Below, one piece after another: positions 1,995-39,729 of a stretch of 64,000 bases of DNA. This DNA is from a virus (taxonomy: Duplodnaviria; Caudoviricetes): positions 1 to 64,000 of the IMG/VR virus record IMGVR_UViG_3300020576_002361. The stretch is one strand, 5' to 3'. The notes beneath the pieces are model-generated. The model ran no database searches. It was given only the letters and a program-made list of their open reading frames with translations, and was not told where the DNA came from. Position 1 is the stretch's first letter. Every line of letters starts with the position of its first letter. The translations under genes and the position numbers were made by a program.

Positions 1995-2890
1995 TACAGG
2001 AGATTCTAGACGAAGCCTTATACTACAGCCCGTTTCTAACCGGAAAACAGTTTGATGCTATTATATTAAAAGCTGCTCTAAAAACAGGATCGGATTCGAT
2101 ATCATTGAAATATGTTGAGCATATCCGAAATATCTTAGTAAATAACTTCTCCTGTGATTATTCAGAACTTACAAATAAAAGTTGTTTTTTGAACTATGAT
2201 TTCCTGAAAGGACGGGTGGACTTCTACGATATTCCTACTTTTGCGTATATAACACTCTATAATGGGCTTTCTGGTCCTCCTTATGTTGTTTCTACAACCA
2301 GTTTTAAGTTGAGAATAGATCATCGACTGCTCCCGAGGTTCTTAGAGCAATCTACCATAAATACAAATGAAGAATATAGGAACACGGTCCTCGAAGTACG
2401 AGGAAAGCATCCACCGGAAAAAAGAATAGTTTGCGGAAGAAGATTAGCGTTTGCTACAAAGCTGTGCCCAGATATAGTCGCTCGATCACCCACTAATGTA
2501 GAAACTGTTACTATGGAAACATACATATTTGATTTATCAAACAGCATAAACTATAATGATAGGCTACTTCTAATCCATATTAGGACTCCCACCGGAGTTT
2601 TCATCATGGAGATAAGCGATATTGATCCTACGAGTATATGGGTGGATAAAAAATTCTACGCAGACAATCCACAAATCCCAAATTTTATCGATTGGCTAAA
2701 AGAAGGACTGCTGGATAATATGACCATAGAGCAAGTCTATAATCATATAAGAAATAAACTATTCTATCCAGAGACAGAAGATGTTGACTCCGACTATTGT
2801 AAGTGTATCATATATACATGTAACAAACAAGAAATCATTCACTCTGAATCTTCTTCTATATCTATAAATCACGAAAATTGGTATATTTAG
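1991..2890 (+). CDS. Hypothetical protein (299 aa)
   Basis: Long ORF, SD GGAGG upstream; ends in TAG; no recognised motif. Confidence 0.7.
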   Translation: MIQEILDEALYYSPFLTGKQFDAIILKAALKTGSDSISLKYVEHIRNILVNNFSCDYSELTNKSCFLNYDFLKGRVDFYDIPTFAYITLYNGLSGPPYVVSTTSFKLRIDHRLLPRFLEQSTINTNEEYRNTVLEVRGKHPPEKRIVCGRRLAFATKLCPDIVARSPTNVETVTMETYIFDLSNSINYNDRLLLIHIRTPTGVFIMEISDIDPTSIWVDKKFYADNPQIPNFIDWLKEGLLDNMTIEQVYNHIRNKLFYPETEDVDSDYCKCIIYTCNKQEIIHSESSSISINHENWYI

Positions 2891-2963
2891 GGAATATGGT
2901 CCAAAAGGTCATAGGGCGCAGGCCTCATAAGCTTGAGATTCTGGTTCGATTCCAGATATTCCT
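2891..2963 (+). tRNA. tRNA-Met/Ile2 (CAT)
   Basis: Acceptor GGAATAT/ATATTCC, anticodon arm CAGGC-CT CAT AA-GCTTG, TTCGATT loop. Confidence 0.85.
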
Positions 2964-2968
2964 ATGTT

Positions 2969-3039
2969 GAGTTTGTAGTTCAGTGGCAGAACAGGAATCT
3001 CTAAAATTCTATGCGTGGGTCCGATTCCCACCAAACTCA
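2969..3039 (+). tRNA. Amber suppressor tRNA (anticodon CUA)
   Basis: Acceptor GAGTTTG/CAAACTC, D-stem GTTC/GAAC, anticodon arm GGAAT-CT CTA AA-ATTCT (CTA at 3001-3003), T-stem GTGGG/CCCAC with loop TCCGATT, A73. Confidence 0.85.
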
Positions 3040-3044
3040 TTATT

Positions 3045-3116
3045 GTCTTCTGAGCTTGTAAGGCTAAGCACCTGACTCTTAATCAGGAGAACAGAGTTCG
3101 ATTCTCTGAGGAGACA
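3045..3116 (+). tRNA. tRNA-Lys (CTT)
   Basis: Cloverleaf with CCTGA-CT CTT AA-TCAGG. Confidence 0.85.
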
Positions 3117-3142
3117 CTTTAACCCTTTATAGGAGGTATTAT

Positions 3143-3466
3143 ATGAGTTAGGAATATGTATACGTATTTGTTAGGAAAGACCTGAGTTATTCTCAAATTT
3201 GTGTTCAAGCAATCCATGCGGTTATTGAACATTGTAAGAACTTTTCTCCGTATGAGAATGTACACCCAAACGTGATTGTTTTCGAGATAGAGGATGAAAA
3301 ATCCTTAATATTAGAAATGAATAAACTATCAAACAAAGGGGTAGATCTGGTTCCTTTCTACGAACCGGATATAAACAACAGATTAACATCATTCGCATGT
3401 AAGACTGTTTCTGGATTAAACAGAAAGACATTTTCAAAATATAAGCTTTTAGGAGAAAAGAAATGA
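3143..3466 (+). CDS. Peptidyl-tRNA hydrolase type 2-like protein (107 codons) with in-frame TAG at codon 3
   Basis: SD AGGAGG at 3131-3136, then ATG AGT TAG GAA TAT GTA... The frame continues as YVFVRKDLSYSQICVQAIHA...FYEPDINNRLTSFA (PTH2-family VRKDL, Q-x-x-HA and EPD motifs). The ORF track catches only 3272-3466. Confidence 0.8.
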
Positions 3467-3948
3467 ACGATGTAAATGTAGGATGCGTAGAAATCGGTAC
3501 CGCTCACGAAGGTAAGTATGGTTTTTACTGCGTAGATAAGACTACTTGGAATAAGATAAAGGTTATTCGCAAGCATTTCTATAGAACTTTAACAAAGGCT
3601 CATGCTTGGCAAAGGTATTACTCTAAAGCTAAACACAACAGAAAAGGTATTGCTCCAGAGCTTTCTCCAGTCGACCTGGTCTTCTGCGAGCAGCTACCAA
3701 CATTCGAATACGTAAGAACCCCTTGGTTCCCTAAGAAATATCTTCAAACCCAAAAAAATCATGAAACCTATTTGAATGTGGATATTCGAATAGTGGAAAT
3801 CATGGAAGTGGCCAGGATGAACTGGGCAACCAAAGAAGTAGCTGAAAAGTTCTCTTTGACCAAGGTTCAGCTAGATTCTGGTCATATGTGTGGTATGGGA
3901 TATTATGTTAATATGATGTATGATAAGATAACACAAGCCTTAAGATAA
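3463..3948 (+). CDS. Hypothetical protein (161 aa)
   Basis: ORF coupled to the upstream stop (ATGA). Confidence 0.7.
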   Translation: MNDVNVGCVEIGTAHEGKYGFYCVDKTTWNKIKVIRKHFYRTLTKAHAWQRYYSKAKHNRKGIAPELSPVDLVFCEQLPTFEYVRTPWFPKKYLQTQKNHETYLNVDIRIVEIMEVARMNWATKEVAEKFSLTKVQLDSGHMCGMGYYVNMMYDKITQALR

Positions 3949-3985
3949 CCTTTATTCAGAAGCGATAGAAATATCGCTTCTTGAT

Positions 3986-4013
3986 TTGACTTTAGAGTTT
4001 AAGAGAGTATAAT
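3986..4013 (+). promoter_or_regulatory. Promoter TTGACT-N16-TATAAT
   Basis: Directly upstream of ATG 4019. Confidence 0.75.
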
Positions 4014-4018
4014 ATATT

Positions 4019-4579
4019 ATGAAACTCGATAGATTAGAGATTGAAAGATTACAGTCCAATTTAGAAGCTTCAAAGCAAAAGTTAGGAAGAGACCGAGCAG
4101 CCCTTAATGGACTCATTCTCGAAAGAACAAACGAAGTGGTGGGGGTGATAATTACTACTTTGGGGTATAAAGCATATGACAACAAGGGTAATATGCTTTT
4201 TGCTTTCTCGGTTAATTGTCATTGCCAAGAATGCTATGGTGGCGATCCTGATTATAATACGCATGATTGTATGTTCGATAATTTGGAGGGTGCTATAAAC
4301 GAGGGAATATATATTCTTTATAGCACCGGCTCCAAAAAATGGGACTCCTTGTCTACGGGAAAACATGATTATAAAAAATCTGGAATACCGAAAGAATTTC
4401 TATACATGGACGACGAAGATATAAAAGCACATCTAGAAAAACAAATACTGGCTTCCAAAATAACCCAAGAAAAGCGCAAAAAGACAACAGAAGGAAAAAA
4501 GCAGGAAAAAGAAAAAGTCAAGAAAGCTGCTTTGGCTAAACTGACTGATGAGGAAAAGAAGATTTTGGGAGTTAAATAA
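4019..4579 (+). CDS. Hypothetical protein with Lys-rich C-terminal motif
   Basis: ORF; ends AALAKLTDEEKKILGVK. Confidence 0.7.
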   Translation: MKLDRLEIERLQSNLEASKQKLGRDRAALNGLILERTNEVVGVIITTLGYKAYDNKGNMLFAFSVNCHCQECYGGDPDYNTHDCMFDNLEGAINEGIYILYSTGSKKWDSLSTGKHDYKKSGIPKEFLYMDDEDIKAHLEKQILASKITQEKRKKTTEGKKQEKEKVKKAALAKLTDEEKKILGVK

Positions 4580-4998
4580 TGTCCAGAAAAAAGAAACCTT
4601 TGTCCACTGTAGTACCAATTAGATTAGAAATTCCAAGTGAAGATTTTGATCCCGAAAATCCACAAAGAGCAGATTTGCGTACAGAATATATTACTATAGA
4701 GAATTTAATAAATTTCCTGGATAAAAAAGGAATTACGAAAGAGATGTACGGCTCTGTCACACTTACTATAGGAACAGAAAGATTCGGAGAACATTCTCAT
4801 CTACTCATAGAATATGATAAAACTTTAAGTCCAGAAGAAATCAAGGAATTGGAAAAGAGAGAAGAGGAAGAGGAAGAAAGAAAACTTAAGGAATCTGCGG
4901 AAAGAAAAAGGAAACTGGCTGAAAAGAAGAAAAAGAAGGAAGCCGTTATTTCTAAGCTTTCTAAGGAAGAAAAAGAATTGCTAGGAATTAAGCAATGA
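4579..4998 (+). CDS. Hypothetical protein with a related C-terminal motif
   Basis: ORF; ends AVISKLSKEEKELLGIKQ. Confidence 0.7.
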   Translation: MSRKKKPLSTVVPIRLEIPSEDFDPENPQRADLRTEYITIENLINFLDKKGITKEMYGSVTLTIGTERFGEHSHLLIEYDKTLSPEEIKELEKREEEEEERKLKESAERKRKLAEKKKKKEAVISKLSKEEKELLGIKQ

Positions 4999-5257
4999 TA
5001 TCCGAAGTCAGAAAAGGATTAAGAGAAGCCTGTAAAATGGCTCCTAAAATATTAGCAAAGTGGCCAGAATGGAAAATAAAAGTAGTAACTCGCCAAACTA
5101 CGACTCCGTGCAAGCCCTAAAAAATGCTGGTGTTGTCGTTAAGCCTATAGCAGAAAAAGTTCTTAACAAACTGGACTGGGGTATATGGAAAGCCGATATA
5201 GCAAGAAATACTATTGAAAATAAACCTTCTATTCTACAGAGACTAAGGAATTTGGTG

Positions 5258-5265
5258 TATAAATA
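5258..5265 (+). promoter_or_regulatory. T4-type late promoter TATAAATA
   Basis: Exact gp55 consensus 10 nt upstream of a tRNA. Confidence 0.65.
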
Positions 5266-5275
5266 GTATTGTTAT

Positions 5276-5346
5276 GCTTCAGTCGTATAGTGGTATTACG
5301 GTGGCTTTGTATCCCACCTACAGGCGTTCGATTCGCCTCTGAAGCT
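5276..5346 (+). tRNA. tRNA-Thr (TGT), with a C:C mismatch at the base of the anticodon stem
   Basis: Acceptor GCTTCAG/CTGAAGC, T-arm AGGCG-TTCGATT-CGCCT, loop TT TGT AT. Confidence 0.65.
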
Positions 5347-5349
5347 TTA

Positions 5350-5505
5350 CTCGCTTTGCGGGAACCGGGATCAGACCCGAGCATCGAAAGATTGGTGTCA
5401 AGGCCGCTCAAGCCGTTGCCAGGAGTAGATCAAGTACCTAGATAGAGCGACTATCTGAAATATTCTTTAACCCGAGAAGTTAAGGAAAGAAGTAGGATAG
5501 GACTT
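5350..5505 (+). ncRNA. Candidate structured ncRNA between tRNA-Thr and tRNA-Gly
   Basis: GC-richer non-coding stretch with hairpins ATC-GAAA-GAT, AGATAG-AGCGA-CTATCT and TTAAC-CCGAGAA-GTTAA. Confidence 0.35.
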
Positions 5506-5507
5506 TC

Positions 5508-5579
5508 GAAGCATTGAGTCATTGGCTGATTGCCTGCCTTCCAAGCAGGTTTAAGGGGGTTCGATTCCCCCATGCTTCT
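5508..5579 (+). tRNA. tRNA-Gly (TCC)
   Basis: GAAGCAT/ATGCTTC acceptor; CCTGC-CT TCC AA-GCAGG; U73. Confidence 0.85.
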
Positions 5580-5691
5580 TTACATTATGTTTATTCGACT
5601 TTAATATGGGAGAAGAGGTGATTACATTCACATAATTCAAATATAATAAACCACAAATAAATCATAATCAAACAAAAATTAAAGGAAATAT

Positions 5692-6678
5692 ATGACTAAT
5701 AAAACTCAAGAAATTAATACAATCGAAGACGCAATCAATAACTTTTCTAAAATCGTGGATTCCTATTCGGAATCTGTTCCAGCTATAAAGGAAACTACTC
5801 TAATTAATAGAGTGGACAATCTAGCTAAATCACCCATTCCTGCTCCTAGATCCAAGTCAGACATGGACCTATACATGAGAACAGCGGAAGCAAAGGGCAC
5901 CGCAATAGTAAACGGCATTAATGAAGTCATGGCTACTAAGCTAATGGCTCATTATCCTGTTTTATCGGAAGACATTCTAAAGCTGGAAAGACACTTAGTA
6001 TTGGGTAAGACCAAACCCGGTGCTAGTACATCTTTTGCTGGATTTAAGATTATCTCCGACTCGGCTAACAAGAAGGTCGCCGAAGAATTCTTAAACAAAC
6101 ATATTGAAACTAATACCCGAGAAGTTTCAAAAAAGGTTAACCTAAAGACAGGAAAAACCGAAGAAAAGGTAAAGGTCAAGAATAGACACGTTCATAGTTC
6201 CAAGGTCATTTCTGGACCACTGTTCCTGTGTGGACCAGTTGGTTCTGAAAGTTGCAACTTCTATTCCAAGAAAACTACAACAGGGAGTAGGTGGAATAGG
6301 CGTACCGTAACTACTTCCATCAAGACAAAGGTTCCTAATATTCCTGAGAACATTCTTCGTAAGGAAAAGATGGAATGCATGAACCATTACTATGAGATTT
6401 GTGCTGAAATCTATAAGGACAAGAAGCTGCATCCTTCCCTGGAAAACTATGTTCCGGAAACGCCTTCTTTCGAGATTATGTGGATTCCTACGGCTAACTC
6501 GATGGACGTTACATCCGAGGTCAAGTATAAGAGAATAGTAAAGGATCCTGTACTTCTCATGAATGTCTTTGGCCGTAAGTTTGTTGTGGCTAAGTGGGAT
6601 ATTAAGGACGAAGAGGAATATGACCATCTCGTTCGTGAGTTTACCGAAGGCAATATCGGTAAGATTTTGGATAAATAA
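5692..6678 (+). CDS. Hypothetical protein (328 aa)
   Basis: Long ORF with SD AAGGA. Confidence 0.75.
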   Translation: MTNKTQEINTIEDAINNFSKIVDSYSESVPAIKETTLINRVDNLAKSPIPAPRSKSDMDLYMRTAEAKGTAIVNGINEVMATKLMAHYPVLSEDILKLERHLVLGKTKPGASTSFAGFKIISDSANKKVAEEFLNKHIETNTREVSKKVNLKTGKTEEKVKVKNRHVHSSKVISGPLFLCGPVGSESCNFYSKKTTTGSRWNRRTVTTSIKTKVPNIPENILRKEKMECMNHYYEICAEIYKDKKLHPSLENYVPETPSFEIMWIPTANSMDVTSEVKYKRIVKDPVLLMNVFGRKFVVAKWDIKDEEEYDHLVREFTEGNIGKILDK

Positions 6679-6682
6679 TGAC

Positions 6683-6710
6683 TTGATTTGAGATTTTCGC
6701 AGCGTATGAT
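6683..6710 (+). promoter_or_regulatory. Promoter TTGATT-N16-TATGAT
   Basis: Variant of the motif family, upstream of the 6745 gene. Confidence 0.6.
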
Positions 6711-6744
6711 ATAACGTCATACGCTGTTTTCATTTGAGGGCACC

Positions 6745-6933
6745 ATGGACGATAAAACTAAGAAAGTATTACAAGCCTTAATAGATGCCGTAAGAGAATT
6801 GGAAATGCGAGACATGCCAAATATTCCAGGAGATATGGAACCATATGGACTTTATGAAGAAGATATTCTAGAGTTACGAGATTCTATAAACGAATCCATT
6901 AAGAAAGCTCAAGATGAACTGGATGGTGCATAA
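6745..6933 (+). CDS. Hypothetical protein (62 aa)
   Basis: ORF with SD GAGG; coupled to next gene. Confidence 0.6.
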   Translation: MDDKTKKVLQALIDAVRELEMRDMPNIPGDMEPYGLYEEDILELRDSINESIKKAQDELDGA

Positions 6934-7259
6934 TGATTAAAGAAATGCTAAACGCCAGAGAAGCAAAGTCTTTCTTGAAAAGACACGAATCTCTTGTGAA
7001 GATTATAAATGATATAGGATTTTGTGTATCCGATGACACAAATAACCACTTATATTCCTATGTCGTCTATCACTCCGCACACACGAACAATATACAAAAA
7101 TACATACAAGAAGAAATGACTTCAGGATACGCAAAAAAACCAGGACCATATGTTTACGCGTCGGACGAGAAAGAACTTGTATTGATAGTTAGAGGTTTAC
7201 TACTTACACACGGTAAAAACTTACATATGGACACGAATACTAACTTTTATGCGGAATAA
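6933..7259 (+). CDS. Hypothetical protein (108 aa)
   Basis: ORF in tightly packed operon. Confidence 0.6.
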   Translation: MIKEMLNAREAKSFLKRHESLVKIINDIGFCVSDDTNNHLYSYVVYHSAHTNNIQKYIQEEMTSGYAKKPGPYVYASDEKELVLIVRGLLLTHGKNLHMDTNTNFYAE

Positions 7260-7788
7260 GTATATGGCAAACATCACAAAAAACGAAGTATATGTTATCT
7301 ACGAGGAAAATAGCAGTGGTGGGGAATCCAAAAGCGATGAAGAATATTCCAGTCGTGAGGACACACACTGCTCCTTTGATGTGGAGGGGGTGTTCATTGG
7401 AGAAAATCAAGGCTATATATACACAGAAACCGTAAAGGTGGATTTTGATCCAGATAAGGTAACGGATGTATACGTTGTCTATGGCCGGTATACCACAGGC
7501 GATTCCTTTGGAACCACATACGGCAAAGGACATATTTCTGGCGTCTACGATACCTATGAGAAGGCCAAGAAAGCTAAGACTTTGTTAGAAGAAATTTATG
7601 GACTCTATCATATTAATTCATCGTTTTCTAGCAAGAAAAACAAACCGCTAAATGACAAGTTGCAGGAATGGTGCCAGCTAAACAATATAAAAGATGCGTC
7701 TGTATATTCAGTAGGTCCATGGCATGGATACTTTGAGAGCTTAGAAGAAATCAATATAGAGGTATTTCCCATAAAAAGGTATAAGTAA
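7249..7788 (+). CDS. Hypothetical phage protein (179 aa; likely start MANITK at 7264)
   Basis: ORF; contains YTTGDSFG motif. Confidence 0.65.
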   Translation: MRNKYMANITKNEVYVIYEENSSGGESKSDEEYSSREDTHCSFDVEGVFIGENQGYIYTETVKVDFDPDKVTDVYVVYGRYTTGDSFGTTYGKGHISGVYDTYEKAKKAKTLLEEIYGLYHINSSFSSKKNKPLNDKLQEWCQLNNIKDASVYSVGPWHGYFESLEEINIEVFPIKRYK

Positions 7789-7789
7789 A

Positions 7790-8071
7790 ATGTGCGTGTC
7801 ATATTGGTATGAAGGTAAAGAATATCATACCATCAAAGAAATACTGGAATTCATTCCTAGAGAATGTCTGGTTATCCACGATGATATAGTATACAATAAT
7901 ATAACAGATGATTCCTGTCTTTGTGCAGTAGATGCGTTTGCTACTGGTAAGAAAGTTGGAATACCCGTGGTTCAGACAGCTATGTGGTATCACTTCGGAG
8001 ACAGGGAATGTGCTATAGCCATTAAACAAGAAGAAAGCGAAGGGGAGCTTGGCTGGTATAGACGGGAATAA
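7790..8071 (+). CDS. Hypothetical protein (93 aa)
   Basis: ORF in operon. Confidence 0.55.
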   Translation: MCVSYWYEGKEYHTIKEILEFIPRECLVIHDDIVYNNITDDSCLCAVDAFATGKKVGIPVVQTAMWYHFGDRECAIAIKQEESEGELGWYRRE

Positions 8072-9958: not shown

Positions 9959-10033
9959 ACCACCATAGCTCAGTCTGGCCAGAGCTGCTGACTTTTAATC
10001 AGTAGGTCGGGGGTTCAAATCCCTCTGGTGGTA
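9959..10033 (+). tRNA. tRNA-Lys (TTT)
   Basis: GCTGA-CT TTT AA-TCAGT. Confidence 0.9.
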
Positions 10034-13622: not shown

Positions 13623-13972
13623 AATATATTTGCCTGACTAAGCAAAATACCATTGATATAGTTTTTATAAACACGCAACCGGAACTAGTGAAATGTTTTG
13701 TTTATCACTCCAAGAATAAGGTAGCCAGGATACTTAATGAAATTCCTGCTGAGAAACATTATACACCAGAGTCTTTCAATAAAGACATCGTAATGTATAA
13801 AATACAGCATATATATCCAGAACTGGGTATATGTAAGGATAGCTTCAATAACTACGCTATATTTGATGGAATCAATATTCAGGAGTATCAGCAGTATTTG
13901 CTCTTCCCTTTGGATTCTTTAAAAATGTTAAGAGAAACGAAGAAAGGGATGACATGGACTTACCTAGCATGA
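13619..13972 (+). CDS. Hypothetical protein (117 aa)
   Basis: ORF in operon. Confidence 0.55.
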   Translation: MKYICLTKQNTIDIVFINTQPELVKCFVYHSKNKVARILNEIPAEKHYTPESFNKDIVMYKIQHIYPELGICKDSFNNYAIFDGINIQEYQQYLLFPLDSLKMLRETKKGMTWTYLA

Positions 13973-37982: not shown

Positions 37983-38659
37983 TTGACTTTCTCATAAAAA
38001 GAATCTGCGCAGGCTGTAATAAATTTTCGATATCCAAACTCGGCAAGATAATTTGCAACCCCACCCTCATCATTATTCTCACAACTGATAAGCCCAACGC
38101 TGTAATTTCGCAAGTCAAGACCTCGCAAAATCTCCAATTCGTGTCCTTCGCAATCAATTGAAAGATAATCGACGTGTTGTATGTTATTATCTTTCAATAT
38201 ACTATTCAAGGTAAGACAAGATACATCAGTTTTTTTTAGTTTACTTCCGTGTATTATCAATTCCTTTTGGATTCTTTCTTCCGACGCAGCATCAACGCAC
38301 GAAGCAAGTCGAGAAAGACCGTTTGCACCAGTATCAATTTCATAAAATTTGGCTATACCCTCTGACGAGGCACAAGCACAATCATAGAATTTATTCTTAT
38401 CCGAGCTTCTATTTTTTGTCAATTGCTCAAAGAGATACTTATTTGGTTCAATACAAATTCCACTCCATCCATAGAAATCCTCCAACATAAGAGTATTGTC
38501 CCATGCAATACCATCATTGGCTCCAACATTCACATAAAATAGATCTCTTTTACCATGATAATACCGTACAGGGATTTCGGCTGGTTGTGGCCTTTGGATG
38601 CCGCAATCTCCATTAAATCCGGGGTATTTCCTTAAAAATTCTTCCAAAGGAACATTCAT
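37979..38659 (-). CDS. FkbM-family methyltransferase
   Basis: VNVGANDG, GICIEPN, LSIDCEGHE. Confidence 0.85.
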   Translation of the reverse strand: MNVPLEEFLRKYPGFNGDCGIQRPQPAEIPVRYYHGKRDLFYVNVGANDGIAWDNTLMLEDFYGWSGICIEPNKYLFEQLTKNRSSDKNKFYDCACASSEGIAKFYEIDTGANGLSRLASCVDAASEERIQKELIIHGSKLKKTDVSCLTLNSILKDNNIQHVDYLSIDCEGHELEILRGLDLRNYSVGLISCENNDEGGVANYLAEFGYRKFITACADSFYEKVK

Positions 38660-39729
38660 TTTATAGCACTCTCCAACGCATTACAAATTGCGGTTTTAAC
38701 TGTTGTGTACTCATATTTATCCTTGTATTTTTGAAGAACCGCGAGAGAAGATGTATTACGATACGCGTCATCGTTTCGCAAACGAATCATTTCGTCAGTA
38801 TATTCTTCTATGCTGTTAGCAATTTTATCACATCCCTACAACATTTCAACATGCCCCTGATCTACATCTGATGGATGTGAAATAAGAGGCAATCCATGGG
38901 ACATAGCTTCTATGATACAAGCAGAGCATACTTCGCCAAAAGGTTTTGCGTGCGTATAACAATTTATTGTTCGTAAGAATTTGTGAATAACTTCTGTATC
39001 CGATGTATGATTTAAAAAATGTACATTTTTAATGTTACGATCTTTGGCATACTGTTTATACTTATCACATCCACCAAGAAGAATAAAATGACTGTCTTGA
39101 ATTCGAGAAAAAGCATCTAATGGAATGGTAGAAAATAATCCAGAATCATTTCGCTGATGAAACCCATAAACATATTCAGAATCACCGATTCCAAAATCTT
39201 TTCTAAAATCATCATTCTGTTGCGGTGGAATAAAAACGATGGATGGAATAATATGTAATTTAGAAATATCTCCCCCGTTATGTATCCATTTTTTAGCCTG
39301 CCATTGGCAAAGTAAAATATACTTTACAATATTATTTTGTTTGTGTACGTGAACTCCATGAACAGTATCTACAATAGGAGTCTTTGTAATATGGGTAAAT
39401 GGATACTCTGGATATCCACCGCGTGCAGAAACTACTAAATCATAATCATTTTCATTGAATTTAGAAAACAAATCTGTTCCATACCACATAGAATTGCTAA
39501 TCAGATCAACATGAACTGGAATTGTATTGATTCCAAAAGATTCAATGTATTGTTTTCTCATCGGATCATTTGGTGGATGCCGCCAATCGGTCCCTTCTGA
39601 CGGAGCATTATTAGTGTAAAAATAATCTACAGAATGACCGCGTTCGGCCATAAAAGCAGCTATAGTTTGCAAATATCGCTCGCCACCACCGGAACTCAAT
39701 CCTGCCGTTTTAATAAATGCTATTCTCAT
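38656..39729 (-). CDS. GT4 glycosyltransferase (357 codons) with in-frame TAG at codon 298 (38836-38838)
   Basis: GGGERY N-motif and GEVCSACIIEAMSHGLP motif. After the TAG the frame stays open for 59 codons (GCDKIANSIEEYTDEMIRLRND...) to a TGA overlapping the next ATG (ATGA). Confidence 0.8.

Follow-up and report, generated by a model that had tools for sequence, protein, structure and literature searches.

An amber codon at the start of a phage PTH2-fold gene and its linkage to a suppressor-type tRNA

Why does a phage gene for a protein related to peptidyl-tRNA hydrolases carry an amber codon at its third position, 100 nucleotides downstream of a tRNA gene on the same strand whose CUA anticodon is cognate to that stop? 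The question is raised by positions 1 to 64,000 of IMG/VR virus record IMGVR_UViG_3300020576_002361 (Duplodnaviria; Caudoviricetes), the stretch of DNA referred to below as the window, in which an earlier sequence-only reading had interpreted the TAG as a switch on a peptidyl-tRNA hydrolase (Pth) gene. The comparisons described here support that interpretation, and we consider it likely that tRNA-CUA decodes the UAG at codon 3 and thereby sets the level of a PTH2-fold enzyme, the tRNA and the gene forming a conserved two-part module. To act in this way the tRNA would have to be expressed, charged and reading the leader UAG, which we infer from the features of the module, and the enzyme would probably be made only while the phage tRNA-CUA overrides the stop.

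The locus and its PTH2-fold product

The suppressor-type tRNA lies at 2968-3040 (+) and is one of 19 tRNA genes that ARAGORN reports in the window; the Rfam tRNA model matches it over its full length (66 bits, E = 6.7e-14). It forms the middle of a triplet (2890-3117), flanked by tRNA-Met (CAU; 2890-2964, +; 56.8 bits in Rfam) and tRNA-Lys (CUU; 3045-3117, +; 51.8 bits), both also recovered by ARAGORN, and has the highest Rfam score of the three, in agreement with the well-formed tRNA-CUA that the sequence-only reading had placed at 2969-3039 within a Met/suppressor/Lys triplet. The cloverleaf is canonical, with a seven-nucleotide anticodon loop, CUCUAAA, carrying U33 and a purine at position 37, and the tRNA belongs to class I, with a G1-C72 pair, A73 and no encoded CCA. 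In tRNAs, U (as pseudouridine) is nearly universal at T-loop position 55; here the position is C (UCCGAUU), as it is in the family suppressors of loci L058, L062 and L070.

Downstream of the triplet, a Shine-Dalgarno (SD) sequence, AGGAGG (3131-3136, +), ends six bases 5' of the leader ATG AGT TAG (3143-3151, +), the amber codon of which occupies 3149-3151 and is followed by G. The bases continue as ATG AGT TAG GAA TAT GTA, and the frame remains open through the 104 codons of the PTH2-like domain. The complete gene (3143-3466, +) has 107 codons, counting the UAG at codon 3, and its TGA (3464-3466) overlaps, in the sequence ATGA, the start of a downstream open reading frame (ORF) of 161 amino acids (3463-3948, +) that belongs to no Pfam family. 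The earliest in-frame ATG, GTG or TTG past the TAG is GTG 3272, at codon 44, so that both the VRKDL and the Q-x-x-HA motif precede any alternative start. These features had all been described from the sequence alone, and the anatomy of the gene and its tRNA is confirmed.

The T at position 3149 is probably present in independent samples. Logan contigs of the probable source run are identical to the window across the locus, and contigs from wastewater RNA libraries of a separate study, which by their nature cannot show transcription, also span it. Of the strain differences listed inside the ORF, those at 3256 and 3274 are synonymous and the one at 3382 changes Arg to Ser at a variable column; none of the listed differences falls within the leader (3143-3151), and there are 11 further differences beyond those listed. 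No match was obtained when window positions 2000-8000 were compared with phage records at the DNA level, and a pattern search of IMG/VR that allowed any codon in place of the stop returned no near-identical leader.

The sequence-only reading had called the product PTH2-like. This assignment is weak when based on the window protein alone, which falls below the cut-off of the Pfam PTH2 family (PF01981; E = 0.015, 15.9 bits versus 23), and solid at the level of family and predicted fold. In an alignment of 45 members, comprising the window and IMG/VR loci, 31 of the 45 match PF01981 individually (E < 0.01), and the profile of the whole family matches PTH2 chains in the PDB over their full length (E = 1.9e-8 and 3e-7). 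The AlphaFold2 model of the window protein has a predicted local distance difference test score (pLDDT) of 93.9, and its top 13 Foldseek matches in the PDB are all PTH2/Bit1 structures, with a probability of 1.0 and template-modelling (TM) scores of 0.67-0.78. Archaeal and eukaryotic Pth2 enzymes (PF01981; e.g. M. jannaschii MJ0051, PDB 2zv3, and human Bit1, 1q7s) share with the phage family the alpha/beta fold (TM 0.7-0.78) and the R-x-D-L and Q-x-x-H-A motifs at about 20% identity. Within the phage family R8, D10, Q19, H22 and E71 are invariant (numbering from the residue after the TAG), and the protein is probably an ester hydrolase acting on a tRNA 3' end.

Leader stops and suppressor tRNAs across the family

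We surveyed loci from IMG/VR (80 loci), from metagenome contigs (80 kept of 212 matches), from seven metagenome-assembled genome (MAG) contigs of species-representative genomes and from GenBank, together with the window; 174 loci had enough upstream sequence to be classified, among which kinship remains (84 clusters at 70% protein identity). A TAG leader, defined as ATG, zero to eight codons and TAG directly 5' of the domain, is present in 133 of the 174 loci and in 66 of the 84 clusters. Other classes are a TGA leader (2 loci), a TAA leader (2), a plain ATG start (10) and a long N-terminal fusion (14). The leader stop is most often codon 3 (58 loci), codon 4 (29) or codon 5 (21), within a range of codons 2-9. 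Of 116 unique leaders, 85 (73%) have an SD-like motif ahead of the ATG, compared with 13% at random positions, and 114 of the 116 have no ATG, GTG or TTG between the stop and the first beta-strand. Immediately 3' of the stop, 83 leaders have A and 52 have G, so that 135 of 137 present a purine, while C and T occur once each; amber suppression in E. coli is known to be enhanced by a purine at this position.

The stop is accompanied by a cognate tRNA. Of the 54 TAG-leader loci whose flanks each reach at least 5 kb, 48 carry a tRNA-CUA or a tRNA-UUA, a count that, like the other co-occurrence counts, varies with flank length and with the sensitivity of ARAGORN to odd tRNAs. All 113 of the 113 suppressor tRNAs lie on the strand of the gene, at a median distance of 884 nucleotides and often at 100-500, and in many loci the suppressor is the sole tRNA within 10-20 kb. 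The anticodon follows the type of stop: the two TGA-leader loci, L044 and L076, have a tRNA-UCA nearby and no tRNA-CUA, and L200, with a TAG leader, has a tRNA-UUA 398 nucleotides upstream. A UUA anticodon is able to read both UAA and UAG. The acceptor stems of the family suppressors are heterogeneous. When the ORFs within 5 kb of the gene were clustered, no protein neighbour was found to be shared across lineages, and this includes the window ORF at 3463-3948. The expectations that relatives would keep the early TAG and that it would co-occur with tRNA-CUA were thus borne out, the former in relatives at 26-50% protein identity.

Some loci that at first seemed to lack a suppressor proved, when looked at more closely, to have one of unusual form or position. 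In L051 the syntenic tRNA (13818-13892) has the loop CCCUAAA, with C for U at position 33, and is missed by ARAGORN; the same program also misses a CUA tRNA with a D-loop insert of about 50 nucleotides (L107, about 1420-1545), and the genome of L045 has a CUA tRNA with an insert of this kind. The genome of L030 carries two tRNA-CUA genes, far from the PTH2-like gene. In L049 (around 9960-10000) the TAG of the SD-ATG leader is out of frame with the domain, and either a +1 shift or decoding of TAGG in a single step would be required; the 20 tRNAs of that locus do not include a tRNA-CUA, and the frame difference may be an assembly indel.

The module also occurs in cultured and named phages. Searches with tblastn found the PTH2-like domain in 36 phage records, mostly of jumbo phages. 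An SD-ATG followed by one or two codons and a TAG in frame with the domain is seen in Yersinia phage fHe-Yen9-04 (M-S-H-stop), Serratia phage BF (M-T-H-stop), Pectobacterium phage CBB (M-A-Q-stop), Salmonella phage Arash (M-L-stop) and LR756511, an uncultured phage of 595 kb (M-T-H-stop). Every TAG-leader phage that was scanned for tRNAs, namely fHe-Yen9-04, CBB, Arash and LR756511, has a tRNA-CUA at a distance of 1-8 kb from the gene. In RaK2 the gene begins at a plain ATG, and none of the seven tRNAs in the RaK2 cluster is a tRNA-CUA.

In the Xanthomonas and Stenotrophomonas phages XacN1, Xoo-sp13 and RAS14, the domain is fused behind an N-terminal domain of about 175 amino acids, and ATG-AAA(-AAA)-TAG stands at the start of that N-domain, upstream of the annotated start. 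Two tRNA-CUA genes are present in XacN1, and its authors, whose test was to read through annotated stops, could not identify target genes for them (PMC5852040). The XacN1 homologue, ORF364, has SD-ATG-AAA-TAG upstream of its annotated start, and a candidate target thus exists at a 5' end, where that test did not look. The leader TAG also explains how the gene is treated in GenBank: it is absent from the annotation of fHe-Yen9-04 and BF, is reduced to 77 amino acids in CBB and 50 amino acids in Arash, and is given a late start in XacN1 and RAS14 (records LT960551, KY630187, KU574722, OQ632216, AP018399 and OP752703). Genes of this kind are thereby missing or truncated in public records.

How the leader stop may be read

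Two alternatives concern the nature of the TAG itself. If TAG were a sense codon throughout the phage (code 15, as in Lak and crAss-like phages), both the suppressor tRNA and the occurrence of in-frame TAG in two genes would be accounted for. ORFs under code 11, however, already account for 95% of the window, and TAG closes six of the 85 ORFs longer than 100 amino acids on the complete 79-kb contig, one of them of 1148 amino acids, so that TAG is a rare but genuine stop in this phage. Reading TAG as sense gives only two sensible merges, in the PTH2-like gene (codon 3) and in a glycosyltransferase gene (codon 298), the only genes with an in-frame TAG in the 79 kb; the other read-throughs enter tRNA genes or gain 2-37 codons. 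On these coding statistics global recoding is excluded, and we regard code 15 as highly improbable, in line with the earlier claim that TAG is placed on selected genes. A one-off nonsense mutation, a pseudogene or an assembly error at 3149 would require only a single-base change; such an accident is excluded because the early stop recurs in 137 of the 174 loci (84 clusters at 70% identity), and two of the three strain differences listed in the ORF are synonymous third-position changes, leaving this explanation with a negligible chance.

Two further alternatives accept the stop and dispense with the tRNA. The leader could be a regulatory mini-ORF after which ribosomes re-initiate at a non-canonical codon or scan as 70S particles, tRNA-CUA being a mere neighbour. 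In favour of this, bacterial ribosomes re-initiate efficiently once they have translated a short ORF, these leaders comprise very few codons behind a good SD sequence, and L076 has a GTG directly after its TGA. Such a mini-ORF would not need to be in frame with the domain, nor to end in TAG in 133 of 137 cases where TAA and TGA dominate ordinary stops; re-initiation would find no ATG, GTG or TTG between the stop and the conserved strand in 114 of the 116 unique leaders, and it leaves both the pairing of TGA with tRNA-UCA and the purine 3' of the stop unexplained, which makes it unlikely. It is also conceivable, though in our view improbable, that the early UAG senses the capacity of release factor 1 (RF1), with basal near-cognate readthrough or RF1 depletion during infection setting the enzyme level, without a dedicated suppressor. 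RF1 alone reads TAG, the stop resembles that of prfB in being early and in frame, and a limited search of two TAG-leader genomes failed to reveal a tRNA-CUA. Sensing of this kind would not predict that 48 of 54 well-flanked loci carry a cognate suppressor in the orientation of the gene, frequently 100-500 nucleotides away, nor that the anticodon follows the stop type, nor that the suppressor is the sole tRNA in many loci.

Several observations weigh against decoding of the leader stop by tRNA-CUA as the whole explanation, or against the function assumed for the enzyme. The tRNA-CUA at 2968-3040 has no clear paralogue among the window tRNAs, the best identity being 70%, to Val and Leu tRNAs, and an active suppressor would also extend the six TAG-terminated genes of the contig, although with so few long ORFs ending in TAG this burden seems slight. 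Selected stretches of the large TAG-leader genomes of L026 and L089 yielded no tRNA-CUA by pattern search, Rfam or ARAGORN, and in the TAA-leader lineage L185/L220, where SD-ATG CAT TAA precedes the domain (3650-3660), neither the 20-kb contig nor the tRNA-rich contigs of the same MAG showed a tRNA-UUA. The ten plain-start loci mostly adjoin a tRNA-CUA (at 300-730 nucleotides in L067, L074, L097, L100, L104 and L059), and gating alone is therefore insufficient to account for the linkage; that the gene and tRNA-CUA travel together even without the gate points to a functional tie beyond timing. As to the enzyme, the catalytic residues reported for archaeal Pth2 are the Lys of a GK motif and an Asp. 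When the family profile is aligned to 2zv3, Gln or a gap falls opposite the GK Lys, and the invariant Glu occupies the position of the catalytic Asp. With the GK Lys replaced and Asp changed to Glu, the substrate may not be ordinary peptidyl-tRNA, and without that Lys the name Pth is our extrapolation.

The glycosyltransferase gene (family 1/4; 38656-39729, -), with its in-frame TAG at 38836-38838, is a candidate second target of the suppressor. The match to Pfam Glyco_trans_1_4 (204-319) crosses the TAG, the glycosyltransferase of Prochlorococcus phage P-SSM2 aligns unbroken across it (residues 1-339, 40% identity), and the extended frame closes in an ATGA overlap with the next gene. The residue opposite the TAG in P-SSM2 is a non-conserved Gly and hence uninformative.

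Considering that tRNA-CUA is likely to be the decoder of the leader UAG, expression could proceed as follows. Ribosomes would start at ATG 3143 and meet the UAG after two codons (Met-Ser). Termination or drop-off would follow there unless charged tRNA-CUA outcompetes RF1, in which case translation would go on. The output of enzyme would then track the amount of functional, i.e. processed and charged, suppressor tRNA relative to RF1, and the tRNA and the gene are probably carried on the same transcript. The reason that we prefer for this coupling is that the enzyme may handle the acylated or peptidyl-tRNAs to which suppression, or the leader minigene, gives rise, its dose being thereby matched to suppressor activity.

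A more far-reaching possibility, which we put forward tentatively and hold to be rather doubtful, is that tRNA-CUA and the UAG-gated gene constitute a self-contained mobile homeostat, with the enzyme acting on the acylated or peptidyl form of the suppressor or on the fMet-X-tRNA released from the leader. Synthesis of the enzyme would report suppressor activity, and the enzyme would feed back on it, fixing the level of UAG readthrough in the infected cell. Such an arrangement is allowed by the frequent occurrence of the suppressor as the sole tRNA, by the stop-less members that lie 300-700 nucleotides from a tRNA-CUA, by the lack of a conserved protein neighbour and by the presence of the module on MAG contigs. 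On the MAG contigs L217-L223 the TAG leader has a tRNA-CUA 110-930 nucleotides away that is the sole tRNA in 12 kb; these contigs were binned with Planctomycetota, Gemmataceae, Alcaligenaceae and Chloracidobacterium, and one of them is 1.68 Mb long.

Related systems, domain fusions and flanking features

Phage suppressor tRNAs, stop-codon recoding, prfB autoregulation and bar minigenes are known, and the module combines features of each; a full-text search of the literature found no paper in which a PTH2-like gene is gated by UAG and linked to a suppressor tRNA of a phage. As in the recoded phages that read TAG as Gln (code 15; Lak, crAss-like), a phage tRNA-CUA would be needed for in-frame TAG and suppressor activity could time gene expression. 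Unlike them, the window phage uses the standard code, with TAG ending real genes, and the conserved target is one small gene with a stop at codons 2-9 that is physically linked to the tRNA. The prfB gene for RF2 likewise has an early in-frame stop, UGA, in a translation-factor-type gene the synthesis of which depends on decoding. It relies on a +1 frameshift and on its own product to read the stop, whereas the PTH2-like gene would rely on in-frame decoding by a dedicated tRNA, and the feedback loop has a parallel only if the PTH2-like product affects decoding. The bar minigenes of lambda share the layout of an SD sequence, a two-codon ORF and a stop that provokes peptidyl-tRNA drop-off, yielding the substrate class of Pth; they are free-standing and end in UAA, whereas the PTH2-like leader is fused in frame and ends in UAG beside a suppressor, and drop-off at this leader is our conjecture.

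Many large phages with the standard code carry suppressor tRNAs of unexplained purpose. The module would supply a conserved and specific target for them, and the orphan suppressor tRNAs of XacN1, one such jumbo phage, now have a candidate target. If decoding by tRNA-CUA is correct, the module would be a natural case of expression gated by a self-encoded suppressor tRNA, and it may represent an intermediate on the way to full stop-codon recoding, or what is left of such recoding. Since it is found in cultured phages of Salmonella, Cronobacter, Pectobacterium, Serratia, Yersinia, Erwinia and Xanthomonas, it is open to bench study.

In contrast to Pth2, some lineages of the phage family are fused to the domain of about 175 amino acids or stand behind a NADAR domain. 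The partner domain, which has H...HD-type motifs, is N-terminal in XacN1 (L004), Xoo-sp13 (L005), RAS14 (L009), L030 and L045 and C-terminal in L105, and the TAG leader is at the 5' end in both arrangements. The N-domain of the XacN1 type has no match in the PDB or Pfam; the C-domain of L105 gives a weak match to Pfam HD (E = 0.019), which serves as a lead only. In L053 (9539-10297), L034 and L039 the PTH2-like domain lies in frame behind an upstream ORF that ends in ...M-R-TAG and that in L053 encodes a NADAR domain, and in these loci the domain could arise as a read-through extension of the upstream protein.

Upstream of the tRNA triplet, the window contains an ORF of 299 amino acids without a Pfam family (1991-2890, +), which ends in TAG, its last base abutting tRNA-Met. 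It is preceded by a sigma-70-type promoter-like site at 1782-1809 (+; TTGACA-16-TATAAT, 12/12), a candidate start of a transcription unit, 5' of which lies a terminator-like hairpin (1693-1729). The next promoter-like site is at 3986, with no terminator-like site between the two. These consensus matches suggest that the ORF at 1991-2890, the three tRNAs, the PTH2-like gene and the ORF at 3463-3948 form one transcription unit.

For Arash and for the genome of L089, ARAGORN also reported tRNA-like genes whose 'anticodons' have two bases (L016 13004-13077; L127 1500-1575; L125 1498-1574); these genes may be tRNA mimics or degenerate tRNAs.
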